This document shows positions 4,105 through 30,744 of a stretch of 32,106 nucleotides of DNA, piece by piece. Made by a program: the position numbers and the translations under genes. Each line of letters opens with the position of its first letter. Positions within the stretch are counted from its first letter, which is position 1. The stretch lies in IMG/VR virus record IMGVR_UViG_3300032322_002004; one strand, 5' to 3'. Source of the DNA: an uncultured virus (IMG/VR IMGVR_UViG_3300032322_002004) (taxonomy: Duplodnaviria; Heunggongvirae; Uroviricota; Caudoviricetes). The notes beneath the pieces were generated by a model. It had not been told where the DNA came from. It was given only the letters and a program-made list of their open reading frames with translations, and made no database searches.

Positions 4105-4116
4105 TAGATTATCCCA

Positions 4117-15487: not shown

Positions 15488-17512
15488 ATGTCATTATCGT
15501 TTCGCTTAGCAGACGACTTCGTAAGCTCATACAAGGAAAAGAAAGTACCTTGGGGGTATGCGGATGCGGCCGGAAATTCGGTTGGGGAGATCACTTTCCT
15601 TCGAACTTATTCCAGGTTAAAAGCTGACGGAACCAAGGAGACATGGGTTGACGTATGCGAGCGTGTTATCAACGGTATGTATTCCATTCAAAAGGATCAC
15701 GCTAAAGCCCAACGACTACCATGGTCGGATGCCAAAGCTCAGGCTTCAGCTAAAGAAGCCTTTGACCGTTTGTTCAATCTAAAGTGGACCCCACCGGGTC
15801 GCGGACTTTGGGTTATGGGTACCCCACTCGTCAATGAGCAGAAGAACTCAGCGGCATTACAGAACTGTTCATTCGTATCAACATCTTCAATGACGAAGCT
15901 TGATCCGGCAAAACCATTCGCCTTCCTCATGGAAGCCTCCATGCTTGGCGTGGGAGTTGGCTTTGATGATAAGGGCGCAGATAAGGACTTTACAATTTAT
16001 GCACCGGAACCAGACACAGCACCAATCGTCATCCCAGATACCCGTGAAGGCTGGGTTGAATCAGCCGCCCTCGTCATCAACAGCTTCCTTAAGCCAGATC
16101 AGAAGAGCCCAGTATTCGACTACACACAAATCCGGCCAGCCGGTACTCCGATTAAAACCTTTGGCGGAACAGCCGCGGGTCACGAACCATTAGAGAAGCT
16201 ACACAATTACATCAGATCTATTTTCAAAGGACGTGCCGGTGAGAAACTTACTCGTAAAGACATCGCGGATATTGGCAATCTTATTGGAGTGTGCGTTGTA
16301 TCTGGCAATGTCCGCCGGAGTGCTGAGCTTCTTATGGGTCGTCTCGATGATAAAGACTTCCTAAACCTAAAGAACGCAGAGGTATACCCAGAGCGTAACT
16401 CGTATGATCCAAAAAACCCAGGATGGGCCTGGATGAGCAACAACAGCGTCGAAGTTTGTGTTGGCGATGATCTTAGCCACATTAAAGAAGCTATTGCACT
16501 CAACGGTGAGCCAGGTGTTATTTGGATGGACGTTACACGTAAGTATGGCCGTCTAATTGATCCAATCAACAACAAGGACCACAGAGCCGCTGGATACAAT
16601 CCATGCGCTGAGCAATCACTTGAAAGCTTTGAGTGCTGTACCTTGGTAGAAACATATCTCAATCGCCATGACTCATTTGAAGACTTCAAGCGCACATTAA
16701 AGTTTGCGTATTTATATGCCAAGACTGTAACACTCCTTCCTACACACTGGGAAGAAACCAATGCGATCATGCAACGCAATCGCCGTATCGGAACTTCAAT
16801 GTCCGGTGTAGCTAACTTTGCAGATCGTGTAGGTATGCCAACACTTCGTGAATGGATGGATGCAGGGTACTCAGCTATCCAGCAATACGACAAGACCTAT
16901 TCTGAATGGCTTGGTATTCGTGAGTCAATCAAGACTACAACTGTAAAGCCATCCGGAACCGTATCGATCTTAGCCGGTGAATCACCTGGAGTACACTGGA
17001 CTCCGGGCGGAGAATACTTTATGAGAGCTATTCGTTTTGCTAACGATGATCCAATGCTTCCTTTGTTTAAAGCATCCGGTTACGTTGTAGAGCCAGCTAG
17101 TGAGTCACCTAAGACTACAAGCGTAGTGTTCTTCCCAATCAAGTCACAAGCTTTGCGATCAGAGAAGGACGTATCTATTTACGAAAAGACTTCTCTCGCC
17201 GCTACAGCTCAGCGTTACTGGTCTGATAACTCAGTCTCAGTAACTATCTCTTTCGATGCAGAGAAAGAAAAGGATGCGGTTGGTACTGTGTTACATATGT
17301 TCGATGGCCAGCTAAAGACTGTCTCTTTCTTGCCAATGGGTAACGCTGTGTATCCTCAAATGCCATACACGCAGACAACTAAAGAAGTCTACGATGAATA
17401 CACATTAAAGCTATTGCCTATTGACTTTACTGACGTGTACGCCGGCATGGCCGCGGATGCAATCGGTGAGAAGTATTGCAGTACTGACTTCTGTGAAGTA
17501 CCAAAACCATAG
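15488..17512 (+). CDS. nrdJ: Class II (B12-dependent) ribonucleotide reductase, monomeric RTPR type
   Basis: TFLRTYSR, PPGRGLW, LQNC, GVGVGF, NPCAEQ, RRIG, TTVKPSGTVS, C-terminal CSTDFC. Confidence 0.95.
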   Translation: MSLSFRLADDFVSSYKEKKVPWGYADAAGNSVGEITFLRTYSRLKADGTKETWVDVCERVINGMYSIQKDHAKAQRLPWSDAKAQASAKEAFDRLFNLKWTPPGRGLWVMGTPLVNEQKNSAALQNCSFVSTSSMTKLDPAKPFAFLMEASMLGVGVGFDDKGADKDFTIYAPEPDTAPIVIPDTREGWVESAALVINSFLKPDQKSPVFDYTQIRPAGTPIKTFGGTAAGHEPLEKLHNYIRSIFKGRAGEKLTRKDIADIGNLIGVCVVSGNVRRSAELLMGRLDDKDFLNLKNAEVYPERNSYDPKNPGWAWMSNNSVEVCVGDDLSHIKEAIALNGEPGVIWMDVTRKYGRLIDPINNKDHRAAGYNPCAEQSLESFECCTLVETYLNRHDSFEDFKRTLKFAYLYAKTVTLLPTHWEETNAIMQRNRRIGTSMSGVANFADRVGMPTLREWMDAGYSAIQQYDKTYSEWLGIRESIKTTTVKPSGTVSILAGESPGVHWTPGGEYFMRAIRFANDDPMLPLFKASGYVVEPASESPKTTSVVFFPIKSQALRSEKDVSIYEKTSLAATAQRYWSDNSVSVTISFDAEKEKDAVGTVLHMFDGQLKTVSFLPMGNAVYPQMPYTQTTKEVYDEYTLKLLPIDFTDVYAGMAADAIGEKYCSTDFCEVPKP

Positions 17513-17520
17513 TTAAAATT

Positions 17521-17552
17521 AAAAGCCCCCTGTGAGAAGCAGGGGGCTTTTT
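17521..17552. terminator. Bidirectional intrinsic terminator between convergent blocks
   Basis: AAAAGCCCCCTG-loop-CAGGGGGCTTTTT. Confidence 0.9.
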
Positions 17553-17650
17553 CTATTTGAGAGCAGGTATAGCTACGGCTGATAGGGGCCGATCATGACT
17601 ATCCTTGGCGTAAGAAAGGTTAGGACCGCTTTGACTCTCTCATAGCTCAG

Positions 17651-17815
17651 TTAATCTTGGTAAAAACCAAAGCGCTCTTCATCAAGCGCATGTTTATCGT
17701 AATCTCCGTCAAACTCTTCTTCTTCGATCTCAAAGTCATCTTCATCTTCATCAATATCTTCTCGACGGATGCTAGGGCTAATCGGTTCAATTAGCGGATC
17801 AGGCAGAATATCCAT
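17651..17815 (-). CDS. Very acidic small protein
   Basis: Not in ORF track. MDILPDPL...EDIDEDEDDFEIEEEEFDGDYD...; AAGGAG RBS; TAATG coupling. Confidence 0.65.
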   Translation of the reverse strand: MDILPDPLIEPISPSIRREDIDEDEDDFEIEEEEFDGDYDKHALDEERFGFYQD

Positions 17816-18099
17816 TAAGCCTCTCCTTTATATGCAAAAGAACCCTTGAATGATACCGGCTTACCCTTCTCATCAAGCTTCTCTCCAGCTTCCAGCTTTA
17901 CGCTCTTGCGTGGTGTGTGTTCGGCGGCCATCGCTTTCAGCCATCTCTTTCCAGCTGACGCGTTAGCCCATGCTTTGAACTGACCTTTCGGTGCGCTCTC
18001 TTGGTCGTCACGTATTACATAGTGACCGATCCATGCTCCACCCTTTTCGGTGTTCTTTGTTAGATCAGCACTAAAAGTATAATTAATCTTCTTTGCCAT
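17815..18099 (-). CDS. Basic hypothetical protein
   Basis: 94 aa, coupled. Confidence 0.75.
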   Translation of the reverse strand: MAKKINYTFSADLTKNTEKGGAWIGHYVIRDDQESAPKGQFKAWANASAGKRWLKAMAAEHTPRKSVKLEAGEKLDEKGKPVSFKGSFAYKGEA

Positions 18100-18100
18100 A

Positions 18101-18280
18101 TTAGCTCTCTTCTATTGTTGTGTACTCAATTAGTGAGCTACCAAAGTCATCATGAATCCAGCCTTGGATCATAGTCTTGGCATACTCTTCGTCAAAACTA
18201 TCCTCGGGATAGTCTCTTCTAAGTTCAGATAGTACCTCATCTGTGTCATAAGTGACAGTTGCGGTTGCGGTTATTTTCAT
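18101..18280 (-). CDS. Small acidic hypothetical protein
   Basis: Not in ORF track. MKITATATVTYDTDEV...IEES; TAATG coupling. Confidence 0.65.
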   Translation of the reverse strand: MKITATATVTYDTDEVLSELRRDYPEDSFDEEYAKTMIQGWIHDDFGSSLIEYTTIEES

Positions 18281-18492
18281 TAGAAGTCTCCGTTCATTAC
18301 ATCAATTGATCTCATTAATTGTTCGCATACCTCTCGGTCGGCGCGGTTGATCTCTTCCGATATATCGGACTCGACCCAGCTATCTCCGGTCCAAACTGTG
18401 CCTTCGGGGAATCTTGCCTCTTCCGAGGCAATATCCCACATCCAGCCCATACCGGATACGTACTTAACTATGAAGTGGTGCTCAGTTCTCAT
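18280..18492 (-). CDS. Hypothetical protein
   Basis: Coupled ORF. Confidence 0.7.
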   Translation of the reverse strand: MRTEHHFIVKYVSGMGWMWDIASEEARFPEGTVWTGDSWVESDISEEINRADREVCEQLMRSIDVMNGDF

Positions 18493-18839
18493 TAGCCTAG
18501 GTCATCCCTATCTATTAGATACTCGATGAAGTGATCTTCTCGGTCATATACAGTCGTAGGGTAGTTCTCTTCAACAAAACTCTCAAACTTATCTCTTACT
18601 ACAAGATCAAAGAATTGATAAGAATTGCACCCACCTACGCCTTCATTACTTACTTGGCCTATCAATACGTCATCAAAGTGAATGGCGGCCTTCCACGCAA
18701 CTCCGCGGTTGTGCTCAAACATCGTGAGTTTAGATACCCGATACAGCTGGGCACTCTCGATATCTTTAGGCACAAGGGATGCGCTCCATTGTGCGGCAAA
18801 CTCGGCATAATCTTGCTGAATGCTAGTCATCTCGGTCAT
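18492..18839 (-). CDS. Hypothetical protein
   Basis: Start MTEMTS coupled to upstream stop; VSNEGVGG motif. Confidence 0.7.
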   Translation of the reverse strand: MTEMTSIQQDYAEFAAQWSASLVPKDIESAQLYRVSKLTMFEHNRGVAWKAAIHFDDVLIGQVSNEGVGGCNSYQFFDLVVRDKFESFVEENYPTTVYDREDHFIEYLIDRDDLG

Positions 18840-19426
18840 TAGATACGCTCCCCACTTAGATAGTCGACTACTTGCATAGCCTCTTTCATAGCATCGTCCG
18901 CTTCTTCCCATCCACCCACGGAGTCCTGAAAATTTTCCGTGGTGTGATTACAAGCTTCACACTTCTCCTCCTTGGTAATGCGGTAGGTATATGACTCGCC
19001 ACGAAGATACTTATCGTAGGACTTAACCTCACCACGCAATAGGGCTTCGGCTTGATCTAAGTCCTTGATACCTTCACGAACCATGTCGCCATCGGTGCAG
19101 AATATGAACCCGACTTGACCACTATCCCAACCCGCGTGTTCGACAATTCCGCGGTAACTCCCTACCTTCATAGAGAGTCCTGAATGGTCATAGAGATATA
19201 GGGGAAGGATGACCATGCCACCCAACTCGGACTCGATATAGTCACGGACTTCCGACCATGAGCCTAAGTCCTGATTATCGATCTTGAATGAGTCACCTAG
19301 GGCATATCTGCCGTGCATACATACCATAGTGCCGAAGTTATCCCACTCGCGGGGATTCTGTGGATCAGTGTCATAGTCAATTGCAATTGTGTAGCCCTTA
19401 TATAGGGTCAATTCGGCGGTAGTCAT
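18839..19426 (-). CDS. Conserved phage/mobile-element hypothetical protein
   Basis: NPREWDNFGTMVC.H..Y, PLYLYDHSG, WDSGQVGFI, YDKYLRGE. Confidence 0.8.
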   Translation of the reverse strand: MTTAELTLYKGYTIAIDYDTDPQNPREWDNFGTMVCMHGRYALGDSFKIDNQDLGSWSEVRDYIESELGGMVILPLYLYDHSGLSMKVGSYRGIVEHAGWDSGQVGFIFCTDGDMVREGIKDLDQAEALLRGEVKSYDKYLRGESYTYRITKEEKCEACNHTTENFQDSVGGWEEADDAMKEAMQVVDYLSGERI

Positions 19427-19602
19427 TACGCCACCTTCACTTCTGCATAGATACCATAGATAGCGTATTCCTTGATCATACGCTTGGTAGATGCTGGAGT
19501 TAATTCTGCATATACAAGTACTTCATTAGTCTCGGTATCGATTATGCAGGTTGGTACTTTCTTACGTGAATTGAGCTTAGGTAGCTCGATCTCCTTTATC
19601 AT
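19426..19602 (-). CDS. Small hypothetical protein
   Basis: Not in ORF track. MIKEIELPKL...YAEVKVA; TAATG coupling. Confidence 0.55.
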   Translation of the reverse strand: MIKEIELPKLNSRKKVPTCIIDTETNEVLVYAELTPASTKRMIKEYAIYGIYAEVKVA

Positions 19603-19617
19603 CGGTATATCTTCTAT

Positions 19618-19686
19618 CTGTAAGCTGAATTCGCGGTAATCGTATATCGATTACTGGATAGGCATATAGATACCTATGGCTTACAG
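19618..19686 (-). promoter_or_regulatory. Three-way-junction 5' leader
   Basis: CTGTAAGC/GCTTACAG outer stem enclosing two hairpins (19636-19654, 19658-19677). Confidence 0.5.
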
Positions 19687-19734
19687 GGCAGACATTACCC
19701 TCCGACAACCCATATTCCTAGTATTTAGGATATT

Positions 19735-19805
19735 TAGCTCTCTCGGCGTGTCGGAGCTCTCTTAGCTCTCTCTCTTAGCTCTCTCTCTTATCAGATAGCT
19801 CTCTT
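19735..19805. repeat. Iterated AGCTCTCT tandem repeats
   Basis: Five AGCTCTCT units around a CGGCGTGTCG box at 19744-19753. Confidence 0.7.
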
Positions 19806-19974
19806 GGCCATAGGGCAGTAAATCTGGCCATATCCGCAGTGTCGCTTTGTCGACATTTGGCAGTAGCCGGAATCGATAAGTAGCTTTGTCGACAATTGCT
19901 ACTTGGCCGGTAGCTCTTCGGCTACCACGGCCGGATCGGCTGTGTCAAGCAACTTAAGCTGTGATTCGCATCAC

Positions 19975-20026
19975 CTCTCTCTTACTTACTTATTCCCTTT
20001 AATGGGGAGGGTGGGCCAACACAAAC
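19975..20026. repeat. Inter-cassette structured element, copy 1
   Basis: CTCTCT...TTCCC...TGG GGAGGGTGGG CCA ACACAAAC. Confidence 0.85.
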
Positions 20027-20078
20027 TTTTCGCTGCAAAAACGACTCAAAGAGTCCTCTCGGCAGCGAAAGCTGTGAG

Positions 20079-20119
20079 CTCGCACCCAACCAGCGTGATA
20101 GGCCGCTGGCCGGGGCGAG
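20079..20119 (-). terminator. Terminator-like hairpin
   Basis: Long GC stem, loop TGATAGGC on + strand, just after the stop at 20129. Confidence 0.65.
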
Positions 20120-20128
20120 AAGATCAGC

Positions 20129-20434
20129 TTATATGTAACGTTTCCATTCAGTCAATACTTCCAGGATCAGCTCCAGGCATTCACCATCGGTGGCCTCTTC
20201 GCCTCCCATGGCTATAATTTGCTGGACCAGGTCCAGGGCATCCGCGTCGTGGCCGTCCTGGCCATCTTTTAGCGTGTTTACATAGCTATCGACCAGGTCA
20301 TCGATTTCTGAGCGCTTCCGCGGACAGTCTGGATAAGCTTTTGGCGCATCTTCACAGCTACAAAACCCGAACTTCTCGACTTGGGTTGCGTGTGTGAGCT
20401 CGGCGAGCTCGCTCCAGGTCATTGATTCGCTCAT
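20129..20434 (-). CDS. Hypothetical protein
   Basis: Coupled ORF; CSCED...YPDC. Confidence 0.7.
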   Translation of the reverse strand: MSESMTWSELAELTHATQVEKFGFCSCEDAPKAYPDCPRKRSEIDDLVDSYVNTLKDGQDGHDADALDLVQQIIAMGGEEATDGECLELILEVLTEWKRYI

Positions 20435-20685
20435 GCCTGGACCCCCGATCTGCGATCAAACTCCCTGGCGGCCTCCGCTAGGGTCTTGCAGTAGGTACCC
20501 TGGGAGCACATGCCCTCAAAGTCTGAGTACCACACCACATATGGATCGACTGGGTGATCGCGGAAAGCTAGGACCACAGCTTGCCCATCACGGATCACAG
20601 CTGAGGCTATACACAAAGCCCCATTTTGAAGGCGGGAGCCACGTAGCTCCTTTAATAAGTGATCACGAACTACTTCTAGTGTCAT
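20431..20685 (-). CDS. Hypothetical protein
   Basis: MTLEVVRDH..., AGGAG RBS, ATGA overlap. Confidence 0.7.
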   Translation of the reverse strand: MTLEVVRDHLLKELRGSRLQNGALCIASAVIRDGQAVVLAFRDHPVDPYVVWYSDFEGMCSQGTYCKTLAEAAREFDRRSGVQA

Positions 20686-21011
20686 TCGTCTACTCCTGAC
20701 TCGATTAGGTTCACAGCATAGGCCCACAGCGGGCTAGAAGACAAGACCTCACGGCGAGCGCCGTCATACCAATCTTGGTAGACATACCAAACAGCATCTA
20801 CTTCACCGAACGAATGTTCGATTTCAATGCGATCAGCTGGGCCGCCAGTGCTAAGAATGACTCTTGTCAGCTTGCGGTGATCAATACCTAGAGCTGGATC
20901 GTCAAAGTAGTCATCATGGTTAGGGTTCTCCATGAGCTCTTTAAACTGGAGCTCTCTCTCTTTCATCTCTCCCGCGATTCTCTCTTCGCAGGTTCTCTCT
21001 TTTGTTGACAT
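20682..21011 (-). CDS. Hypothetical phage protein (LSTGGP...YQDW type)
   Basis: GAGGA RBS; first gene of cassette. Confidence 0.75.
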   Translation of the reverse strand: MSTKERTCEERIAGEMKERELQFKELMENPNHDDYFDDPALGIDHRKLTRVILSTGGPADRIEIEHSFGEVDAVWYVYQDWYDGARREVLSSSPLWAYAVNLIESGVDE

Positions 21012-21135
21012 TTGTTCCTCTCTTCGCCCTATCTGAGCTAGGAGAAAACTACAGCTACAGCTACAGCTAGCCAGGCATTTAACTCGGCGTGTCGCAACTA
21101 TTTTTACACAGCTCTCCAGCGTGTCGGCTTGACAT

Positions 21136-21190
21136 CTCTCTCCGTTTACCCTATCCCGAAGGGATAAGGGGAGGGTGGGTCAACACAAAC
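21136..21190. repeat. Inter-cassette structured element, copy 2
   Basis: CTCTCT...TATCCC GAA GGGATA..GG GGAGGGTGGG TC AACACAAAC. Confidence 0.85.
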
Positions 21191-21217
21191 ATTTGGATGG
21201 GTGTAGGCAAAAACCAT

Positions 21218-21258
21218 AAAAAAAGAAACCGGCGCGGGGTGATAGGCCCCCGCACCGG
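21218..21258 (-). terminator. Intrinsic terminator
   Basis: GC stem with loop TGATAGGC; A-tract on + strand gives a U-tract on -. Confidence 0.8.
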
Positions 21259-21268
21259 CTGAAGCTAG

Positions 21269-21406
21269 CTACTTACTAGCTTCTAATCTTTTCTCGATTA
21301 GGATCAGATTCCAGTAAATCATGCACCACTGGCATTCACACAGATCCCCTTCGGGGTGGATGTTCCTATCAATCCACTCCAGGGCCTCCTGGATAGTCGC
21401 GCTCAC
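21269..21406 (-). CDS. Small hypothetical protein
   Basis: Not in ORF track. GTG start, H...CECQWC, GTGA overlap. Confidence 0.5.
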   Translation of the reverse strand: MSATIQEALEWIDRNIHPEGDLCECQWCMIYWNLILIEKRLEASK

Positions 21407-21573
21407 ATTGAACTCACTTCCATATAGTGGAACACATTGGAATCACAGAATTCGACCTTGTCATCAGTGTCCTCTTCATTGAAGTAAGCATCGTAGAGGG
21501 CCTCAGCCTCCTCCTCATCCCTGGCTTGGATGAAGAGTTGCTGAGTCACAATATTGGCTATAAACGTTGGCAT
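21403..21573 (-). CDS. Small acidic hypothetical protein
   Basis: MPTFIANIV...; TAATG coupling. Confidence 0.65.
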   Translation of the reverse strand: MPTFIANIVTQQLFIQARDEEEAEALYDAYFNEEDTDDKVEFCDSNVFHYMEVSSM

Positions 21574-22109
21574 TAGTCGACCTTTCCACAGCGACGGCAT
21601 TCTTGGCGGTAAACGTGCTTGCAGTGAATACCAAGGTTGTTGTTAAAGACTTCAGAGATGTCTTCCCCAAAGATGTCGTAGACGACGTTGTCGTCACCAC
21701 CTTCAAACTGTATACCGTCTTTCTTCCAGTACTCGACAACGCCACGCTCGCCGACAAACTGTGTCCATTGGTAGTTGGAGCCTTCAAATCTAAAGTGGAA
21801 ATCATTTTGAACCTCCAATACTTTTTGGGTAGCGCTCTCAATTTCGATCCCAGCAAGAAGAGGAATCTCTCTTATTGGTTCATTCATTAAACGAGGAGCG
21901 ATGCGAACGACGGCTAGGTCATCTGCAACCTCAACGCACTCAGGGTTATTCTTGGTATCGATAGTGCATGCTTCAACGAACCATTCACTCTCTTCTCTCA
22001 ACCAATTAGCAGCATCGACATAACTTCCAAAATCCTCATTGGTATAAGTCGTTGCGCTCTCTACTTCATTACCTTCTACGTCGGTGACGTAATACTTAAC
22101 TTTGTACAT
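21573..22109 (-). CDS. Acidic hypothetical protein
   Basis: GATAGGAG RBS; C-terminal CKH...CRRC. Confidence 0.75.
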   Translation of the reverse strand: MYKVKYYVTDVEGNEVESATTYTNEDFGSYVDAANWLREESEWFVEACTIDTKNNPECVEVADDLAVVRIAPRLMNEPIREIPLLAGIEIESATQKVLEVQNDFHFRFEGSNYQWTQFVGERGVVEYWKKDGIQFEGGDDNVVYDIFGEDISEVFNNNLGIHCKHVYRQECRRCGKVD

Positions 22110-22208
22110 TTCGATCTCCTATCAGGGATGTGGAATTTCCACTTGCACAAGGTATCGAATCCCGGACAAAAGTGTGGGACCTCGGCCGGTCGGCGTGTCG
22201 CGCCTCAT

Positions 22209-22267
22209 CTCTCTTTTATTTATTAACCCTTTAGGGTTGAATGGGTGGGTGGGCATTCAACACAAAC
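22209..22267. repeat. Inter-cassette structured element, copy 3
   Basis: CTCTCT...AACCCT TT AGGGTT GAATG GGTGGGTGGG CATTC AACACAAAC. Confidence 0.85.
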
Positions 22268-22319
22268 AATTTGGCGCTTCGCACAGCTCTTTGCTGCGGG
22301 CGCCAGCTGTAGGATCATG

Positions 22320-22354
22320 AAAAAGAAAAAGCCCCCCAGCCGTAGCTGGGGAGC
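22320..22354 (-). terminator. Intrinsic terminator
   Basis: CCCCAGC CGTA GCTGGGG with an A-tract on + strand. Confidence 0.85.
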
Positions 22355-22369
22355 CTTCCCTTGGTTTAT

Positions 22370-22849
22370 CTACTCGATAGGAGAGATAAGGTCTTGGGCG
22401 GTTTCATCCAAGGTGGCCTTCACCTTTGGGTGGAGTTCATTCCGCATGTTGGCGAATGCTGGGGCTGGCCAGCCAGCCTTGTACACTCGGTCTAGCAGGT
22501 TTGCTAGGGAGTAATCGGGTGTTAATTTCTTGCACTCGATAAGTGATAAGAATGCGCTAGGGGTATCGCCATTCTCGTAATGGTAAGCCGAAAGAATGGC
22601 GTACCAAGGGGTGCGGTGCTTCTCTTCCACTAGGGGAATGATAGTTTCAGCGAAACGGATACTATCCTTTACAGATAGTTCTAGGGGCAGACCGAGTAAG
22701 TAATCTCGGACTTGTATATCGGCAGAAACTACTTCTGCCATATCAGCGACGAGTTCAGGTGAGAACTCTTGTGAGTCTTGGAAAGAATTGACGAGTGCGT
22801 TAATCGCCTCGACGCCCCTTCCAACTGTAAGGTTTTCCTTAACAGTCAT
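22370..22849 (-). CDS. DUF4192-like helical protein
   Basis: VRDYLLG...ENGD..SA..SL...PDYSLANLL.RVY.AGWP resembles the actinobacterial DUF4192 C-terminus. Confidence 0.65.
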   Translation of the reverse strand: MTVKENLTVGRGVEAINALVNSFQDSQEFSPELVADMAEVVSADIQVRDYLLGLPLELSVKDSIRFAETIIPLVEEKHRTPWYAILSAYHYENGDTPSAFLSLIECKKLTPDYSLANLLDRVYKAGWPAPAFANMRNELHPKVKATLDETAQDLISPIE

Positions 22850-22895
22850 TTGTATCTCCTATCAGAATAACTAGGCGGTGTTGCCTAGTGAGAGA

Positions 22896-22949
22896 ACTGT
22901 ATAACGGCTCACCGACAATTCCCTGCATTTGCCTATCCTCGGCGTGTCG
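22896..22949 (-). promoter_or_regulatory. Cassette promoter: CGACACGCCG...AAATGC...TTGTCGGT-N9-TACAGT
   Basis: Same architecture and spacing as 24089-24142. Confidence 0.7.
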
Positions 22950-22970
22950 CACTTCCCAGCTCACCGGCAT

Positions 22971-23026
22971 CTCTCTTACTTACTTATCCCTCTGGAAGAG
23001 ATAGGGGTGGGAGGGCCAACACAAAC
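22971..23026. repeat. Inter-cassette structured element, copy 4
   Basis: CTCTCTTACTTACTTATCCC...GG GGTGGGAGGG CC AACACAAAC. Confidence 0.85.
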
Positions 23027-23050
23027 AATGCGAGCGCTGCCGGACATGCG

Positions 23051-23079
23051 AAACGCCCCCACCGATCTCGGCAGGGGCG
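23051..23079 (-). terminator. Terminator-like hairpin
   Basis: CGCCCC...GGGGCG stem with a short U-tract on -. Confidence 0.65.
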
Positions 23080-23092
23080 CTCGCTGGACGAA

Positions 23093-23593
23093 TTACCAAC
23101 TGGCTTGATACACGAACTCACCATCTGGGAAACGCTCTAATGCTTCCGCAATAATCTCTGCGGTTTGGAGCAGGTCAGCGTAGTAATACTGGTCTTTCTC
23201 TGTGCCGCCGAAGAAGAAACCAGCAACTGGTCTTAGTGGGTCTGATGTGTCCTCAAACTGTTTCTCTAATAGAGCCAGCGTGGTTTCCATCTTCATTTGA
23301 TTTGCCAGCCACTCACCAATGTTTTCTCCATCAACTGGAACTGACTTTGATGACTTAGGGCTTTCGGTCTCTTCCAATGGAGCTGGGTCTTGGCTGCGCT
23401 TTACTAGAGCCGTGAGGCATAGAGCCTGTAACTCCATCAACTTGATCTTGGATACTGGTATTTCTTGGCACTCATCTACTCCATCAGCCAACTCACGAAC
23501 AAACCAACCATGAATAGCATTTGCCTTACGCCAGTAACCTACTTCTTGCGTTCCTTCTGATGTTCTTACTCCTAGATACATGTCTAGTCCCAT
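23093..23593 (-). CDS. Conserved phage hypothetical protein (MGLDMYL...YWRKAN...YQASW)
   Basis: Recognisable terminal motifs; GATAGGAG RBS. Confidence 0.8.
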   Translation of the reverse strand: MGLDMYLGVRTSEGTQEVGYWRKANAIHGWFVRELADGVDECQEIPVSKIKLMELQALCLTALVKRSQDPAPLEETESPKSSKSVPVDGENIGEWLANQMKMETTLALLEKQFEDTSDPLRPVAGFFFGGTEKDQYYYADLLQTAEIIAEALERFPDGEFVYQASW

Positions 23594-23619
23594 TTTTTTC
23601 TCCTATCTTGTTGGGTGGT

Positions 23620-23646
23620 GAGCAGTTTAACCACATACTCAGGTGG
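23620..23646 (-). ncRNA. H-type pseudoknot motif, second copy
   Basis: On -: CCAC CTGAGTAT GTGG TTAAACTGCTC; the stem covaries with the 7935-7963 copy. Confidence 0.5.
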
Positions 23647-23656
23647 ATAGTGGGAT

Positions 23657-24046
23657 TTAGAGATACTTTGAGATGTCTTTCATTGTTGAGGCATTGACGA
23701 ACTCCTCGTCGGTCATCTTTAAGATGTTGAGGGCATTTTGGATTTCCTCTAACTGCCAATGACCTAATGTGCTTTCATGCTCACGCTTTGGCTCATCAGG
23801 TAGAACTGTGCCCTCAGCAATTTCATACTCAACTGTAAGAGTTCTGTTCCATGTTCTGAGGTTAAGTGAATTAACCTTCACGCTATCTTTGAGTTCTTTT
23901 ACAAGGCTGGCGTTGTATTTATCCATAGCCTTTTGATAGTTCTCCTCATTGACCTTATTGCGTTTTTCTCTTTCTTGGTTATCAGTAATTTTGTTCTCTA
24001 GTGCCGCAATAACTTTGGCTACTGGAACTTTTACTCTAACTGCCAT
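23657..24046 (-). CDS. Hypothetical protein
   Basis: GATAGGAG RBS; first gene of cassette. Confidence 0.8.
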   Translation of the reverse strand: MAVRVKVPVAKVIAALENKITDNQEREKRNKVNEENYQKAMDKYNASLVKELKDSVKVNSLNLRTWNRTLTVEYEIAEGTVLPDEPKREHESTLGHWQLEEIQNALNILKMTDEEFVNASTMKDISKYL

Positions 24047-24088
24047 TTGTTTCTCCTATCAGAGTCTGCCCGTGTTGGCATTGGCTCA

Positions 24089-24142
24089 ATAATAGGCGAA
24101 CCCACCGACAACCACCGGCATTTGATGATTACCGGCGTGTCG
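24089..24142 (-). promoter_or_regulatory. Cassette promoter: CGACACGCCG...AAATGC...TTGTCGGT-N9-TATTAT
   Basis: Repeated architecture. Confidence 0.7.
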
Positions 24143-24145
24143 CAA

Positions 24146-24205
24146 CTCTCTTTTCCCTATTCCCTTTAGGGATAGAGCAGGGTGGGTGGGCTGCTCAACA
24201 CAAAC
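24146..24205. repeat. Inter-cassette structured element, copy 5
   Basis: CTCTCT...TCCCT TT AGGGA TA GAGCAG GGTGGGTGGG CTGCTC AACACAAAC. Confidence 0.85.
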
Positions 24206-24237
24206 ATTTTGCGATCCGCGCTCGCGCTCGCCAGGTA

Positions 24238-24278
24238 AACAAATCGAGCTCCCGATCCGCGGGGGACCGAGAGCTCGA
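24238..24278 (-). terminator. Terminator-like hairpin
   Basis: TCGAGCTC...GAGCTCGA followed by TTTGTTT on -. Confidence 0.7.
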
Positions 24279-24299
24279 CTGTCTCCTGATAGGGGAAGC

Positions 24300-25193
24300 T
24301 TATGCGATAACCTCTTCTGAGATCTTGGCGCTTTCTTCTTTACGGTTGATCCCTTGGATGTAATCAGCTGCTCGCTGCGCCTTGCCGCTAGCTGCGATGA
24401 TCAGTGACGGATCATTCTTTAAAGCTTTCAACCATCCGGCGATGTAGCTCGCAGAATTCTGCATGTCGACCTTGATCCCGGCCGAGCTTAGGAGCATCTG
24501 GGCGCCGATATCTGCGACGAGCTCTTCTCGTGCGTAGTTAGCATCTCCAAATCGTGCCGGCTTATCATCCTCGCTAAATCGGTCTAGGCGTGATTGATGT
24601 CCGGTTGAATGAATCATCTCATGGCATAGAGTGTAAGCGTGACTCTCTGCATCGTCGAATGTCTCCAACGGTGGCAACGTGATCGAATCGGCCAACGTGT
24701 CATAGAATGCGCGACCTTGCGCCTTGTAATAAATCTCCGGCTTGCTGGTATACCCGGCCACGATTGAATTTAAAGCTGGCAAGGTTGCAACCGGTTCGCG
24801 CTTGATGTCATAAATGGCCGGGATGGTAATCCCCTCGCATTGTTCAACGTTGAACACGCTATAGAATTTCATAAATGCACCCTTAGAGACGGGCTTGCCA
24901 TCCTCGCCTTGCTTAATGATGCGTGACCAATACACGACGGGCAGACTCTTCTCACCCTTGCGGACGTTACCGCCTAGGGCTTGCGCTTGCTTATAGGTAA
25001 CCCATAGTGAGCGCTCATATTGTGCGCCACATATTGCTAGCACTAGGGCATTGATACCCGAATATTCTTTATTGCTGGTTAAGCTCATTGGCATATATCC
25101 GCTTGAATTCCATGGTTTATGCCATGGCGCGATACCATTCTCCAATTGTTCAATTACTAGGGCGTTGATTCGCTCCACTAATTCCTTGTTCAT
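24300..25193 (-). CDS. ardC: ArdC-like antirestriction protein (ssDNA-binding domain plus zincin-like domain)
   Basis: LENGIAPWHKPW, YSGINAL, WVTYKQA...GGNVRKGEK, VFNVEQ, HEMIHSTGH..RL.R, YAREELVA, SASYIAGWL. Start at ATG 25193 after GATAGGGG. Confidence 0.9.
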   Translation of the reverse strand: MNKELVERINALVIEQLENGIAPWHKPWNSSGYMPMSLTSNKEYSGINALVLAICGAQYERSLWVTYKQAQALGGNVRKGEKSLPVVYWSRIIKQGEDGKPVSKGAFMKFYSVFNVEQCEGITIPAIYDIKREPVATLPALNSIVAGYTSKPEIYYKAQGRAFYDTLADSITLPPLETFDDAESHAYTLCHEMIHSTGHQSRLDRFSEDDKPARFGDANYAREELVADIGAQMLLSSAGIKVDMQNSASYIAGWLKALKNDPSLIIAASGKAQRAADYIQGINRKEESAKISEEVIA

Positions 25194-25230
25194 TCTATCC
25201 CCTATCGTTACGCCTTGTTGCGTAGGTAGA

Positions 25231-25297
25231 AAATTACCGCATATGAATTGATTCACCAACACGACACGCCGCTCATATATAACGATTTGATAACAAT
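25231..25297 (-). promoter_or_regulatory. ardC promoter (TTGGTG-N17-TAATTT) with GACAC box and MtrA-like direct repeat
   Basis: CGACACGCCG at 25262-25271; ATAACGAT-ttg-ATAACAAT at 25279-25297. Confidence 0.65.
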
Positions 25298-25361
25298 CTC
25301 TCTCACAACAACTCCCTTACGAAGTAAGTCAGAGACAGGGTGGGCGGGTCTCAACACAAAC
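25298..25361. repeat. Inter-cassette structured element, copy 6
   Basis: CTCTCT...CCCTTAC GAA GTAAG...GAGAC AGGGTGGGCGG GTCTC AACACAAAC. Confidence 0.85.
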
Positions 25362-25375
25362 ATTTTTGGCAAGCG

Positions 25376-25408
25376 AAACGCCCGCCCCCGGGGAAGTGGG
25401 AGCGGGCG
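25376..25408 (-). terminator. Terminator-like hairpin
   Basis: CGCCCGC...GCGGGCG stem. Confidence 0.65.
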
Positions 25409-25422
25409 CTGATCCAGCTTTT

Positions 25423-25698
25423 TTATTCTGCCTTGGCGATACCTTCTAAGTAAGTCACCGCGTCATATATGGCGTCGGTATCTGATACCTCGGGTAGTAA
25501 TCGCCATAGAGCATTTGCTAAGGCTTGTGGTGTTTCGTATTTCATCTTGTGCTTCCCCATATCTGTTTCGTATGTTTCACACTCTGAGCAGGTCTCGGAG
25601 CGGTATTCCCTTTCATCATATTCATTGTCGCACCTATCGCATTTGACCCATATTGAGTCATCATAGAAGGCGGGGTCTGCCATTGGTGGATAACTCAT
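25423..25698 (-). CDS. Zn-finger-containing hypothetical protein
   Basis: CDRC...CSEC. Confidence 0.7.
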   Translation of the reverse strand: MSYPPMADPAFYDDSIWVKCDRCDNEYDEREYRSETCSECETYETDMGKHKMKYETPQALANALWRLLPEVSDTDAIYDAVTYLEGIAKAE

Positions 25699-25892
25699 TT
25701 CATCAACCCCTCATCTATGAAATCGCCACAAGGATATTCAATGGCTACTGGTGGAAGGTAAGTAGTCCAACGCTCACCCTCGGCGGTATTCAATCTAACT
25801 CTGAATGACCCTGTGCGATTTGGAACAATCTCCATAATCTGACCAACAACGCCACTCTTATGAGTTGTGTATGTCTGACCTATCTCAATCAC
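25695..25892 (-). CDS. Small SH3-like beta protein
   Basis: IGQTYTT.KSGVVG.I.EI...RVRL...RWTT; GTG start with GATAGGGG RBS. Confidence 0.65.
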   Translation of the reverse strand: MIEIGQTYTTHKSGVVGQIMEIVPNRTGSFRVRLNTAEGERWTTYLPPVAIEYPCGDFIDEGLMK

Positions 25893-25934
25893 TTGCTTCC
25901 CCTATCTATCAAACCAATTTGATTTGATGACTTA

Positions 25935-26012
25935 ATAATAGACACGCTCACCGACAATACTCAAAACGACACGCCGTAGTTATATAACAATTTGATAACG
26001 AAGTTATCCACA
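25935..26012 (-). promoter_or_regulatory. Cassette promoter (TTGTCGGT-N9-TATTAT) with GACAC box, MtrA-like repeat and DnaA box
   Basis: CGACACGCCG 25967-25976; ATAACAAT-ttg-ATAACGAA 25984-26002; TTATCCACA 26004-26012. Confidence 0.65.
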
Positions 26013-26013
26013 A

Positions 26014-26068
26014 CTCTCTTATATATATATTCCCTTGAAAAGAATGGGGTGGGAGGGCCAACACAAAC
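26014..26068. repeat. Inter-cassette structured element, copy 7
   Basis: CTCTCT...TTCCC TT GAA AAGAA TGG GGTGGGAGGG CCA ACACAAAC. Confidence 0.85.
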
Positions 26069-26093
26069 ATTCTCGGCGCGGCCGGGCAAGGCG

Positions 26094-26117
26094 AAACCCC
26101 CGGCTGATCACCGGGGG
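26094..26117 (-). terminator. Terminator-like hairpin
   Basis: CCCCCGG-loop-CCGGGGG followed by TTT on -. Confidence 0.7.
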
Positions 26118-26137
26118 CTCCGTTCTTAGTTAGGGGA

Positions 26138-26287
26138 CTAAGCTTTGACCTTTTCTATGTATCGACTGATCTCGTAGTAAGCGCGGGCACATCTGTGGCA
26201 GAACTTCTCTGTCACTCCGATTCCATACATAAGGGCGTCTACCCCTGAATAGACAACCTCATCGCTTTCGCAGATTAAGCATTTCAC
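26138..26287 (-). CDS. Small Zn-finger protein
   Basis: Not in ORF track. (M)KCLICES...FCHRCA...; GGAGG RBS. Confidence 0.65.
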   Translation of the reverse strand: MKCLICESDEVVYSGVDALMYGIGVTEKFCHRCARAYYEISRYIEKVKA

Positions 26288-26439
26288 TTGGCAACCTCCA
26301 GTGCTAGATACTCGACGCAGATTCTGATTGCGTCATCTGGTCCTGTGCAGTTGTCAATCTCTGACTCAAATCGAGCCGTGGTCTCTGAGTCGTTGCGGAA
26401 CTTCTCATAAACCTTTGCCATAAATAATCTTGGGTCCAT
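26284..26439 (-). CDS. Small hypothetical protein
   Basis: Not in ORF track. MDPRLFMAKV...LEVAK; GTGA overlap. Confidence 0.6.
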   Translation of the reverse strand: MDPRLFMAKVYEKFRNDSETTARFESEIDNCTGPDDAIRICVEYLALEVAK

Positions 26440-26441
26440 CT

Positions 26442-26597
26442 TTATTCCCTTTCCCATTTGATTAGGTCACAAGAGCGACCATCGACTGTTTGCTTGCAGT
26501 TTCCATATACTGGATTGTAGAAGGCGTGGAGCACCAATACTCCGAGGAGTAGGAGCGCCCCGAGGAGCGCCCCTACCTTGTCGAGAGTGTTAAGCAC
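26442..26597 (-). CDS. Small membrane protein
   Basis: VGALLGALLLLGVLVLHAFY hydrophobic helix; GTG start overlapping the upstream stop. Confidence 0.6.
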   Translation of the reverse strand: MLNTLDKVGALLGALLLLGVLVLHAFYNPVYGNCKQTVDGRSCDLIKWERE

Positions 26598-26952
26598 TGA
26601 CCGCGACCTTGGTGCGTCGGGTGTAGGTATCGATACCGAGTTGGTATAGATGGTTGACGAACTTCGTCTTGGTGTAGCGGTTGGCATTGGTGTGCAGACC
26701 GATACGGCGTTGGATGTCGGCTGGTGTGTAGAAGTAATCGCTACCAGCGATGTCGCTTGTGTAAACGAGAGCGCCGTTGGCACCCTCGAGCATCTTGATG
26801 CGAGTGTAGAACTCGCCAGCGTTGGCGTCGGTAATTTCGTTCATACCGATAACCATAGTTGCGAAGACAAGGCCCTGAGTCTTGACAGACTCGGTGCCGC
26901 TGTTGATTTCACTGAAGTCTATGACTCGAGTGATATCCCACGTAAGTGGCAT
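26590..26952 (-). CDS. Hypothetical protein
   Basis: MPLTWDITRV...IGMNEIT..N..EFY.R...RRIGL.TNA; TTAGGGGA RBS. Confidence 0.75.
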   Translation of the reverse strand: MPLTWDITRVIDFSEINSGTESVKTQGLVFATMVIGMNEITDANAGEFYTRIKMLEGANGALVYTSDIAGSDYFYTPADIQRRIGLHTNANRYTKTKFVNHLYQLGIDTYTRRTKVAVSA

Positions 26953-27020
26953 TTTATCCCCTAACGGACAGTGCCAGCGGTGTTGCTGACAAGACATATA
27001 AAACACTATCCGTTGAGCGT

Positions 27021-27065
27021 AGTCAATGCGACACGCCGTGCGCTTCATAACAATTTGATAACAAT
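27021..27065 (-). promoter_or_regulatory. Cassette promoter region with TTGACT, GACAC box and MtrA-like repeat
   Basis: CGACACGCCG 27029-27038; ATAACAAT-ttg-ATAACAAT 27047-27065. Confidence 0.65.
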
Positions 27066-27171
27066 ACCCCCCTAGGGGTTAAATGTCGACAATTTTGAGA
27101 TAGCCACCAGGGAACCCGAACAGGTGATGCTGAATTTGCTAGGCAGTAGCCCAGTTTGCTAGGGTGCGGGA

Positions 27172-27573
27172 ATGGACAACGACAAAAAAACACGTGAAGA
27201 AATGTTAAATGAAGTACTAGCTCAGATTGAACGTAGATTTAAAACTTCTACTAAAACTGAAGTCCCAGATAAGCCGAGAGAAGTGCCGGTGCAATTGAGG
27301 TTCAAAAGATGCCCTGCTATTACCAGAGCAGGCAATCCATGCCCAATTGGCGGTGAAGATGAACGTGGCGGTTACTGTCATGTCCATGATCCGGAAGGTA
27401 CCTACCAGAAACAACAAAAGAACAAAAAGCCAGTTCAACTAAAGCCTGCAACCTTTGGTACCAAAGAAGACCGGATCCGTGTGCAGGTGGCGCGGGAAGC
27501 TATTGAATACCTACGTAAAAACCCAAATTGTCATCCAGAAGAGCTCATAGATCTAATTTTAGGAAATTGGTAG
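27172..27573 (+). CDS. Protein with C-x8-C...C-x2-H Zn finger
   Basis: RCPAITRAGNPC...YCHVH; probably leaderless (TAGGGT 6 nt upstream). Confidence 0.7.
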   Translation: MDNDKKTREEMLNEVLAQIERRFKTSTKTEVPDKPREVPVQLRFKRCPAITRAGNPCPIGGEDERGGYCHVHDPEGTYQKQQKNKKPVQLKPATFGTKEDRIRVQVAREAIEYLRKNPNCHPEELIDLILGNW

Positions 27574-27595
27574 TAGCGTTTGCTACAATTAAGAC

Positions 27596-27739
27596 ATGAT
27601 CGCATTTGGACTAGAGCTGCGGAGAGCTCCTGAGCGTAAGCCTCAGGTAGTCGATGTTGCATGCAGTCATTGCGGTCGCCCTTACCAAGTCACAGAAGAT
27701 AACCTACGTGTAGGTAACTACTGCTCAAGCTGTAAGTAA
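27596..27739 (+). CDS. Small Zn-ribbon protein
   Basis: Not in ORF track. CSHC...CSSC; leaderless (TACAAT 6 nt before ATG). Confidence 0.65.
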   Translation: MIAFGLELRRAPERKPQVVDVACSHCGRPYQVTEDNLRVGNYCSSCK

Positions 27740-27866
27740 CGTGTGCAAAAACTGCGGTAACTGTACAGCTGAACACGGCGGTAGGACAATTGATGATGCC
27801 GTAGATGAGATTTTAGATTCACCAGTTTAGGCAGTAGCCGGAAGCCGCGGTAGCCATACTACCTCC

Positions 27867-28094
27867 ATGAGATACACAGTTTGGCTATGGGATCAGATGG
27901 ACGAAGATAGCCCTATTGGCAGATTTGCCAAGCTTTGCTATGACGACGTAAATAATGGCTGCGCTAATCCAAAGTTTTCAGCCGGTGAGTGGATCTCACA
28001 TTTTGAACAAAATCATCGCGATAACAAAGAGGAGCTTATTTCCAGGTTCTTTACAACATTCATTGTGTATAACAAGTCTAACAAGGCTGAATGA
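27867..28094 (+). CDS. YozE-like (SAM-like) protein
   Basis: WL.DQ.DEDSPIGRFA...DD pattern; leaderless (CATACT 6 nt upstream). Confidence 0.55.
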   Translation: MRYTVWLWDQMDEDSPIGRFAKLCYDDVNNGCANPKFSAGEWISHFEQNHRDNKEELISRFFTTFIVYNKSNKAE

Positions 28095-29287: not shown

Positions 29288-30454
29288 ATGCCACTCCCAC
29301 TAATACCAATAGCTATTGCTGCTGCTGGAACTGTTGCACGTGCCGCCGCCGGTGCTGCTGCAAAAGAAGTTGTTAAGAAAGCTGCACCTGTTGTTGCTAA
29401 AGAAGTTGTTAAAAAAGCTGACGACGTTGCTGCAAAAGTACTTCCACGTACTGCTGAGTTTGTAACTGGTAAAACATCATCATGGGATGATGCTTTTGCT
29501 GCTGCTAAAGCTGCACCTGCAAAACCTGCACCTGCGCCAGTAAAACCTGCACCATCAACACCTAAAGTTGATCCACTAAAGCCAGGAACACCTGCGCCAA
29601 AAATTGAACCATGGCAAAAGCCTGGGCCACAATTCCCAACTATTACTCTTCCTAAAACTGCACCGGCACCTAAGCCTGCGCCAGCTCCTGCTCCTAAGCC
29701 AGCACCTGCGCCAGCTCCTAAGCCAGCAACGCCTGCGCCAAAGATCACACCAAAACCAGCGCCAGCTCCACAACCTTACACAGCACCACGTCCATCAACT
29801 CCTGCAACAAAACCAGGAGATCTTCCAGGTGCACCGGGTTATCCAAAGGTAACACCTAAACCAGCACCGGCTAAACCAACACCATCTAAGCCTGCGCCAA
29901 AAATTGAACCAAAGACACCACCAAAGATTGAACCAAAAACTCCTGCTAAGCCAGAAACAAAACCAACTGTTCCTGGTAAAGAACCATTCTTTGATCCAAA
30001 GCCAGGTATTAAGCCAGGAGTTAAGCCAACTACAAAGCCAGAAACAAAACCAAGTACTAAGCCAGAGACAAAACCAGAAACAAAGCCAAGTACTAAACCT
30101 TCTACAAAACCTTCTACTAAGCCAGGAACAAAGCGTCCTGTTCGCACTGCGCCTGGACTACCTGGAACAGGTAAGCCTGGTACGGGTAAGCCTGGAAAAA
30201 CTAATCCTAAGACAGATAAGCCAAAGAAAGACAAGGTTAAGCGCGAAGCTCGTAAACCAAAAATTGATATTCCTCCAGTCTTTTTCCCAGAGCTAGAGCC
30301 TTTTGATCCACCAGTTACTCAGCCACAGCCTCAACCACAGCCAGTTCCATTTATTCCTCCTACAATTCTTGAAACAAAGAAAAAAACAGGAGGATTTATC
30401 CCTAAGAAGGGCCCAGAAGCCCCACCTTGGAACGCACCAAGTAGGGTTATCTAA
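29288..30454 (+). CDS. Pro/Lys/Thr-rich repetitive protein with hydrophobic N-terminus
   Basis: MPLPLIPIAIAAAG start; PAPAPK and TKP[ES] repeats. Confidence 0.8.
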   Translation: MPLPLIPIAIAAAGTVARAAAGAAAKEVVKKAAPVVAKEVVKKADDVAAKVLPRTAEFVTGKTSSWDDAFAAAKAAPAKPAPAPVKPAPSTPKVDPLKPGTPAPKIEPWQKPGPQFPTITLPKTAPAPKPAPAPAPKPAPAPAPKPATPAPKITPKPAPAPQPYTAPRPSTPATKPGDLPGAPGYPKVTPKPAPAKPTPSKPAPKIEPKTPPKIEPKTPAKPETKPTVPGKEPFFDPKPGIKPGVKPTTKPETKPSTKPETKPETKPSTKPSTKPSTKPGTKRPVRTAPGLPGTGKPGTGKPGKTNPKTDKPKKDKVKREARKPKIDIPPVFFPELEPFDPPVTQPQPQPQPVPFIPPTILETKKKTGGFIPKKGPEAPPWNAPSRVI

Positions 30455-30744
30455 TGGCAGAAGCAAAAAAGTTTGGTCCCTACAAAGGTTCCAAAGCGAA
30501 TGGAGGTCGCCCTATCTACGTCTACAAGAAAAAGGTAGACGGTAAGTGGGTCACAACATCGAAAAATAAAGCCCGTGCCGACTATGAGGGAAAAAACGGG
30601 AAGCTTCCTCGAGACACAGACGTGGATCACAAGGATAATAATCATAGTAACGATTCCTCAAAAAATCTCCGCGCCCTAAAGCACGGAAAGAACACAGCGA
30701 AAGAAAACAAACGCCGTGCAGGCAAAAAGGAGAATGAAAAATGA
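30454..30744 (+). CDS. Small HNH-motif protein
   Basis: DVDHKDNNHSNDSSKNLRAL...N. Confidence 0.75.
   Translation: MAEAKKFGPYKGSKANGGRPIYVYKKKVDGKWVTTSKNKARADYEGKNGKLPRDTDVDHKDNNHSNDSSKNLRALKHGKNTAKENKRRAGKKENEK

Follow-up and report, generated by a model that had tools for sequence, protein, structure and literature searches.

What is the function of a short repeated element that separates groups of genes in the early region of an uncultured freshwater phage? The window, by which we mean the whole 32,106-nt stretch of IMG/VR record IMGVR_UViG_3300032322_002004 (Caudoviricetes), carries seven copies of this element, which a first-pass annotation made from the letters alone had described as a dedicated single-stranded DNA or RNA signal of conserved structure and no recognised name. 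Our analysis supports that interpretation in part. The element does appear to be a dedicated signal without a name. Rfam 15 gives 0 matches in the window, none overlapping the element at E values up to 5 and none on 14 loci with the longer forms found in relatives. Because its 10-nt core (the 10-mer, GTTTGTGTTG in the minus sense) occurs genome-wide, largely on one strand and in excess in the complete genomes of relatives, our reading shifted to a directional signal at the DNA level. We tentatively propose, at slightly less than an even chance, that a phage-encoded factor recognises the core GTTTGTGTTG(G) in DNA as a strand-specific site.

A largely one-stranded word in the phage genomes

In the window, the core stands on the plus strand as CAACACAAAC at 20017, 21181, 22258, 23017, 24196, 25352 and 26059, with spacings of 1164, 1077, 759, 1179, 1156 and 707. 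The minus-strand pattern GTTTGTGTTG-N1-7-CCCNCCC matches all seven sites, with 0.00 matches expected (100 shuffles), and the seven copies share one orientation, that of the genes around them. The number, positions, spacings and common orientation that had been read off by the first-pass annotation are thus borne out.

In three complete genomes of relatives the exact 10-mer is present 10 (G001), 13 (G003) and 11 (G005) times. By comparison, 209 further words with its composition occur on average 0.29-0.37 times per strand and none exceeds 4 save the one-base shift TTTGTGTTGG; because this overlapping shift alone does so, the true word is the 11-mer GTTTGTGTTGG. The copies are split between the strands 9:1 in G001, 12:1 in G003 and 10:1 in G005. 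Across these genomes, 16 dispersed copies lie on the array strand though the late genes surrounding them run in the opposite direction, and they fall within ~30-55 kb "upstream" of the array, with none in the 35-61 kb beyond. Many of them lie antisense to late genes, within long open frames on the other strand; the positions of these coding copies are not orthologous among genomes. Two intergenic copies next to late-gene hairpins are conserved in all three genomes and absent at those places in G002 and G004, two further relatives.

The word also varies in concert within a genome. The early palindromic elements of G052 have GTTTGGGTTG or GTTTGGGTCG in place of the usual core; outside the array, 10 of 11 copies have the early-sense orientation, and the same T-to-G change is found in 7 of these 10. 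In G056, closely spaced array copies are antisense to the early genes and follow, on their own strand, a GC hairpin and TT; the core is thus not bound to the transcript of the sense strand. Among 41 genomes of the Nanopelagicaceae, the putative host family, the 10-mer is not enriched (0-7 each, like a reversed control, bar one phage-like contig), and the reader of the word is therefore probably phage-encoded. A host Chi site was rejected for Nanopelagicaceae by the same 41-genome count, the host family itself being putative. A word that is exact, over-represented, largely one-stranded regardless of gene direction, independently gained within genes and co-varying across a genome fits a DNA recognition site with a co-evolving reader, and this co-evolution again makes a phage-encoded reader the most likely.

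Architecture of the element and its surroundings

Because the genes between 17.6 and 27.2 kb are all on the minus strand, the element is read in the minus sense. In this direction it consists of GTTTGTGTTG, then G/A or an arm of 3-6 nt, the C-tract CCCNCCCNCCC, the arm complementary to the first one in copies that have it, a hairpin with GGGA(A/G/T) at the end of its 3' side, a C-free spacer of 8-16 nt and (A/G)GAGAG. The spacer is often made of short tandem units such as GTTGTTGT or GTAAGTAAG. We call the stem around the C-tract P1 and the second hairpin P2. In window coordinates, the copies and the sites discussed with them are:

26014-26068, minus: copy 7; 10-mer, tract CCCTCCCACCCC without P1, hairpin with GGGAAT, AT spacer and GAGAG, then the DnaA-box-like TGTGGATAA
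25298-25361, minus: copy 6; P1 GAGAC/GTCTC around CCGCCCACCCT, P2 CTTAC-TTC-GTAAG, then GGGAG, GTTGTTGT and GAGAGAG; upstream of the ArdC gene
24146-24205, minus: copy 5; P1 GAGCA/TGCTC, P2 CCC-TAAA-GGG
22971-23026, minus: copy 4; no P1, hairpin CTCT-TCC-AGAG
22209-22267, minus: copy 3; P1 GAAT/ATTC, P2 AACCC-TAAA-GGGTT
21136-21190, minus: copy 2; "type A", TATCCC-TTC-GGGATA, the commonest subtype in relatives
19975-20026, minus: copy 1, at the end of the array, followed by a 424-nt leader with GAGAGAGC repeats
21227-21260, minus: GC hairpin and T-run upstream of copy 2, the clearest intrinsic-terminator-like site preceding an element
20043-20055: weaker terminator-like site before copy 1 (consensus scan)
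16454-16463, plus: within the ribonucleotide reductase gene and on the opposite strand, the one further exact 10-mer of the window; G003 and G005 have copies in the same context

We find that P1 behaves as a conserved helix. An insert of at least 3 nt separates the 10-mer from the C-tract in 53 of 105 distinct copies of the short form, the form present in the window. Of these 53, 44 have beyond the tract an arm with perfect complementarity over at least 4 bp, compared with 7% in controls in which arms were set against the flanks of other elements, and the arms comprise 22 different sequence pairs. When 25 copies (21 distinct) are aligned without gaps, the P1 helix of 5 bp is 83.8% paired versus 64.0% in shuffled alignments (0/500 reach this value), its covariation score is 0.640 versus 0.251 (0/500), and slid registers are 27-50% paired. 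Given this excess of pairing and covariation over the shuffles, the stem around the C-rich loop is selected as a helix, in support of the initial claim that pairing is kept while the sequence varies. P1 is optional, and half of the copies lack it, including four of the seven in the window. The stems originally read as GAATG/CATTC, GAGCAG/CTGCTC and GAGAC/GTCTC are present in copies 3, 5 and 6, whereas a fourth, TGG/CCA, is not a real helix. P2 is variable; it is missing in several copies, and a few have only CCC...GGG. Because the helices are kept by compensatory change, we infer that at least part of the element acts as a folded single strand.

The composition of the helices speaks against a role as sense RNA. 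Structured RNAs usually tolerate G.U far better than A.C, and the short-form helices hold 1030 Watson-Crick pairs with isolated mismatches of the G.T type in 5 cases and of the A.C type in 6, while the long-form helices of relatives hold 740 Watson-Crick pairs and zero G.T. The GNA triloop class forms very stable DNA mini-hairpins, and in 39 of 65 short-form P2 hairpins the loop is TTC, TAC or TCC in the sense strand, that is, GAA, GTA or GGA on the template (window plus) strand. A G-quadruplex is not a general feature, as four G-runs occur on the antisense strand in just 45 of 108 copies and three in the other 63.

These template-strand triloops, on P2 stems of 4-9 bp followed by a conserved GGGA and a purine run, would suit an early promoter or a priming signal that depends on a hairpin in that strand, comparable to N4 promoters or to an initiation site of the G4/single-strand-initiation (ssi) type, and G001 does encode its own DnaB/DnaC/DnaG set. 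We nevertheless regard such a signal as very improbable. A T7/N4-type RNA polymerase was not found in 5 complete genomes (PF00940, which gave no signal in control genomes either), the largest open reading frame (ORF) of G001 is 960 amino acids, several copies have no P2 and the promoter region of the first unit has no element. A small RNA or decoy family is a further candidate raised by the C-rich 11-nt loop that P1 presents, since such loops are found in the actinobacterial 6C RNA and other small RNAs, and one subtype in four genomes directly precedes a GC hairpin with a T-rich tail. However, no promoter was recognised upstream of the window copies, no terminator follows them, 6C is not matched in Rfam even at E values up to 5 and the evidence for action at the DNA level also speaks against it, so we find this extremely improbable. 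The first-pass annotation had listed both a small RNA and a single-stranded DNA promoter as options; evidence for either was not found.

The copies occupy a constant place between gene units. Each is located 61-102 nt after a stop codon, and the next start codon is 99-424 nt downstream, counted from the start of the 10-mer. The gaps had been described as running from the terminator of one unit to the promoter of the next. A stable GC hairpin indeed precedes all seven copies, ending 1-15 nt ahead of the 10-mer (~-20 to -34 kcal/mol, within the 70 nt upstream). The consensus scan called a T-run terminator ahead of two copies only and a sigma-70-like promoter directly after a single copy, and "terminator" and "promoter" are for this reason partly interpretation. 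None of the 10 promoter-like sites in 17500-28000 is inside an element.

Each copy also sits ahead of the operator-like motifs of the next unit; these motifs, without an element, are also found in the promoter region that opens the block (~27.06-27.25 kb). Within 130 nt downstream of 108 copies (window 19600-27250 and related loci) we count 42 with GTGA-N6-TCAC (CRP/GlxR-like), 33 with GACACGCC or TGTC-N5-GACA, 25 with GTTAT/ATAAC pairs, 15 with a DnaA box (at most 1 mismatch) and 5 with a LexA-type CGAAC-N4-GTTCG. The resemblance of these motifs to the sites of host regulators suggests that the early units may be independently regulated and sense the state of the host.

A boundary acting at the RNA level would fit much of this placement. 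The element might be a back-up terminator, an insulator or an RNase processing site on read-through or polycistronic early transcripts, much as RNase III sites lie between the early genes of T7. Read-through is plausible because only two of the preceding hairpins have T-runs. The window copies are all co-oriented with the genes, the small stems need a single strand, units with different operator-like sites would gain from insulation and the first promoter of the block lacks the element. Yet the 10-mer is antisense to late genes and, in G056, to early genes; G.U is not in excess over A.C; a match in Rfam is absent; and one copy in each of G002 and G004 is inverted relative to both flanking gene sets. 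On balance we consider an RNA boundary unlikely, though not negligible.

The inverted copies (G002, L204 ~3950-4022; G004, L205 ~3700-3775) belong to the subtype …CCCCTACGGGGAATCGAGAGAG. This subtype is conserved in four genomes and adjoins a bidirectional GC terminator where the early block begins; the sequence upstream of it shows no conserved -35/-10 in these four. At the other end of the array, the 424-nt leader past the last element (window 19640-19760, minus) holds repeated AGAGAGAGCT units and TGTCGACA palindromes, because of which the GAGAG box looks like a separate repeated site and not solely the 3' end of the element. Unit-leading genes (window 20682-25900) have a GATAGG(A/G)G context in 5 of 7 cases and the fuller CTGATAGGAGA-N5-ATG in 3, which have TGA and TAG stops in two frames just 5' of the Shine-Dalgarno sequence. 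Short ORFs beginning at or in the element terminate at those stops (for example, 22122-22256). A leader peptide after GAGAG was rejected, as the start codons are inconsistent, and so was a CUCCC-GGGAG pairing or Shine-Dalgarno-sequestering switch, for which no consistent co-variation was seen by eye.

Returning to the DNA recognition site, we propose that the early region would have incorporated it into modular junctions, one at each boundary between gene units, in which the 10-mer is joined to a C-rich tract and to one or two variable hairpins that would fold when single-stranded. The reader would be a DNA enzyme or binding protein taking part in a directional process, and the hairpins and C-tract would act on an unwound or displaced strand. 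By analogy with phage nick sites, nicking is the leading specific mechanism, though in itself a doubtful one. Within the DNA-signal reading, the word could instead mark priming sites or loading sites, the latter in line with the initial option of protein loading for DNA entry, or it could be a Chi-like signal specific to the phages. An equally doubtful, fuller version is that GTTTGTGTTGG is a phage-encoded strand-specific nicking/priming target, such that the anti-defence array would give regularly spaced single-strand entry points and displaced-strand hairpins would organise stepwise DNA entry, early replication/recombination and the exchange of independently regulated units.

A number of observations weigh against a strand-specific DNA site. 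Polarity is not universal, with 11 versus 6 copies in two domains of G056 and no strand bias outside inverted pairs in G053. Duplex DNA cannot extrude stems as short as 4-6 bp with 11-nt loops, and a source of single strands must therefore be assumed. The argument from the loops is not uniform, because the GNA loops of the long forms are on the sense strand. The array copies are all at a unit boundary right after a GC hairpin, which also fits a role at the transcript level. Lastly, no reader protein was found, with HNH genes as candidates, and the host assignment depends on a single binned contig.

Long palindromic forms and the exchange of units

In sister phages we find 41 distinct long forms of the element, 59-143 nt in length, that open with the 10-mer and end in its reverse complement. 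Some contain the C-tract and two or three internal hairpins, and others are simple long hairpins. The hairpins of the long forms are near-perfect palindromes with AT-rich self-complementary centres, which likewise speaks against a role as sense RNA. Four long forms have compensated end variants, namely GTTTGGGTTG/CAACCCAAAC (two), GTTTGGGTCG/CGACCCAAAC (one) and GTTTGTGCTG/CAGCACAAAC (one), in a search that demanded exact complements and so left uncompensated variants outside its count. Short and long forms occur together in one genome in G002 and G004.

The copies are also recurrent in new surroundings. The 109 copies fall into 63 subtypes. Upstream and downstream contexts number 6 and 9 for the 16 copies of type A, and 4 and 4 for the 7 copies of the copy-6 subtype. 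All five copies in G001 are type A. Comparison of the window with G008 reveals units that were replaced or inserted. One option put forward at the outset was that cassettes are shuffled at the element. A test of this option was negative: homology blocks of at least 250 bp end close to elements no more often than expected, with 6% within 50 nt versus 15.5% in the null and 24.5% within 100 nt versus 24.8% (n=49, non-independent). Even so, identical subtypes recur with unrelated flanks. Among 80 loci located via the neighbouring reductase gene, many of them truncated or differently organised, 14 have at least one copy opposite the strand of that gene and no copy on its own strand.

Repetitive extragenic palindromes (REPs) offer another explanation. 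REPINs are inverted REP pairs that form hairpins, according to the available parts of two reports (PMC3337134, PMC3116915). The element could likewise be a selfish or recombinogenic palindrome, similar to a REPIN or a miniature inverted-repeat transposable element (MITE), with the long form mobile and the short form of the window a decayed or half derivative, spread by gene conversion or transposition and only incidentally a joint for unit exchange. The long forms bounded by the 10-mer and its complement, the identical subtypes with unrelated flanks (type A, including every copy in G001, and the copy-6 subtype) and the unit replacement or insertion between the window and G008 are what such an origin would produce. 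It is decidedly unlikely all the same, as no transposase, REP-associated tyrosine transposase (RAYT) or integrase was found in G001, array placement and orientation are strict, the bare 10-mers within coding sequence cannot have arisen by insertion, homology blocks do not end preferentially at elements and no target duplication was seen by eye.

The phage group and comparison with known systems

The element is common in contigs of ~96 kb WhiB-encoding myoviruses, a large group of uncultured freshwater phages. At least 191 stretches in IMG/VR match its pattern, several on complete records of ~96 kb, and 602 contigs encode relatives of the ribonucleotide reductase gene that neighbours the array; relatives without the element have no repeated 10-mer in common. 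G001 (complete, ~96 kb) is a myovirus with WhiB, DnaB/DnaC/DnaG, PolA, RecA and DpdA. Two further features of the window belong here:

17651-27193, minus: block of small leftward genes holding the array
24300-25262, minus: ArdC-like anti-restriction gene (Pfam ArdcN 1e-29, MPTase-PolyVal 1.2e-33), cargo of one unit

The naming of ardC as a cargo gene was therefore correct and, with the small ORFs and the layout, ArdC points to this block as an early/anti-defence region. Other window proteins include PolA, a RecA/UvsX-like protein, RusA- and RuvC-like resolvases, a Cas4-like exonuclease, Hsp20, a DpdA-like transglycosylase and a class II ribonucleotide reductase.

The host of these phages is possibly Nanopelagicaceae. 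A 7.3 kb contig (C44 of the metagenome-assembled genome G011; L208/L209) binned with Candidatus Nanopelagicaceae has eight 10-mers; it is probably a mis-binned phage fragment, and the hint that it gives about the host is weak. Cellular genomes gave 23 matches, of which 3 have further parts of the element, all on small contigs (3.5-7.3 kb) that are probably phage. Among 50,697 phage records there were zero matches by megablast of the region or blastn of one element, and the closest isolates by PolA are Streptomyces phages at ~41% identity. In full-text literature, the matches listed for the 10-mer or its complement were only unrelated primers, and no such element was found among the matches listed for freshwater actinophages.

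Several neighbouring genes are of separate interest. The DpdA-like protein (window 13908-15377, plus; phrog_887, queuine tRNA-ribosyltransferase family) is conserved in G001 and suggests 7-deazaguanine modification of phage DNA, which would be relevant to arguments about G-quadruplexes and restriction. A 388-amino-acid ORF (29288-30454, plus) has Ala/Pro/Lys-rich tandem repeats (families D1-D3, D6) and is followed by an HNH endonuclease gene (30454-30744). The RusA-like and RuvC-like junction resolvases and the Cas4-like exonuclease lie at 3473-5997 (plus) and an Mre11/SbcD-like nuclease at 8258-9472, in the same genome that is rich in palindromic elements.

How does the element compare with known systems? 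We conclude that it belongs neither to an Rfam family nor to attC, promoter early stem-loops (PeSLs) or REP/REPIN, since in each case it lacks one or more of the defining features tested. Like integron attC sites, which the first-pass annotation had offered as a model, the copies are structured, co-oriented sites at cassette boundaries that would fold as single strands. Unlike attC, they have no second inverted core (the sense strand of all seven window copies lacks a downstream CAACACAAAC, which is present only in the long forms of relatives), no integrase was found and the units carry their own regulatory regions. In G001, no integrase, transposase or RNA polymerase was recognised, and an integrase is absent among 106 ORFs of at least 90 amino acids (PHROGs) and 65 ORFs of unassigned function (Pfam), minus two ORFs crossing piece borders. 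The attC-like model is therefore not supported.

Chi and the FtsK-orienting polar sequences (KOPS) are polar, over-represented G/T-rich oligomers. The 10-mer is similarly an over-represented, strand-polarised G/T-rich word that also occurs within genes; unlike these signals, it measures 10-11 nt, shows no enrichment in the 41 genomes of the putative host family and has one variant that is specific to a single phage genome. With REP, REPIN and bacterial interspersed mosaic elements (BIMEs), as described in the available parts of their sources, the element shares a mosaic of conserved motifs and variable palindromic units in extragenic positions after genes, and the long form of relatives resembles a REPIN in that an inverted pair of conserved ends closes a hairpin, a pair that the window copies lack. 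It differs from REP/REPIN in being restricted to phages, in the strict order of the array and in that a RAYT (HUH Y1) was not found in G001. The PeSLs of T4-type phages are composite terminator/promoter sequences serving as exchange points, according to the available part of their description (PMC4122927). As far as that account goes, both are conserved short intergenic modules between small ORFs of a plastic region with unit replacement; the element differs in having no sigma-70-type promoter inside it, in homology end points that are not enriched and in a core that is also found outside the plastic region.

The closest precedent is offered by the consensus sites of localized nicks in T5, phiKMV-like phages and Pseudomonas putida phage tf. 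In the available part of the report on tf, 14 sites of the 9-nt consensus 5'-TACTRTGMC-3' share the top strand, in a genome whose gene sets converge, and localized nicks have no known purpose (PMC3517423). To the extent that this source describes them, nick sites and the 10-mer are alike in being a short exact word at ~10-14 per genome, on one strand whatever the direction of genes, with a purpose that is unknown. The one-strand feature is found in G001, G003, G005 and G052, not in G056 and G053. Unlike nick sites, the 10-mer is clustered in the early region (~1 per kb) inside hairpin modules, occurs as inverted pairs in some relatives and has no identified nickase.

The element, which combines a one-strand phage DNA word with a REP/BIME-like hairpin mosaic at gene-unit boundaries, is without a name in Rfam, phage isolates and the searched literature. 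It joins a genome-wide one-strand word to a modular anti-defence array with DnaA-, LexA- and CRP-like operator-like sites. If the word marks nicks or loading sites, it would give a sequence-defined handle on the function of phage DNA nicks and could reveal how early cassettes are insulated and exchanged. If the nick/priming reading is true, abundant freshwater actinobacterial phages would possess a T5-like nick system with a defined structured module.

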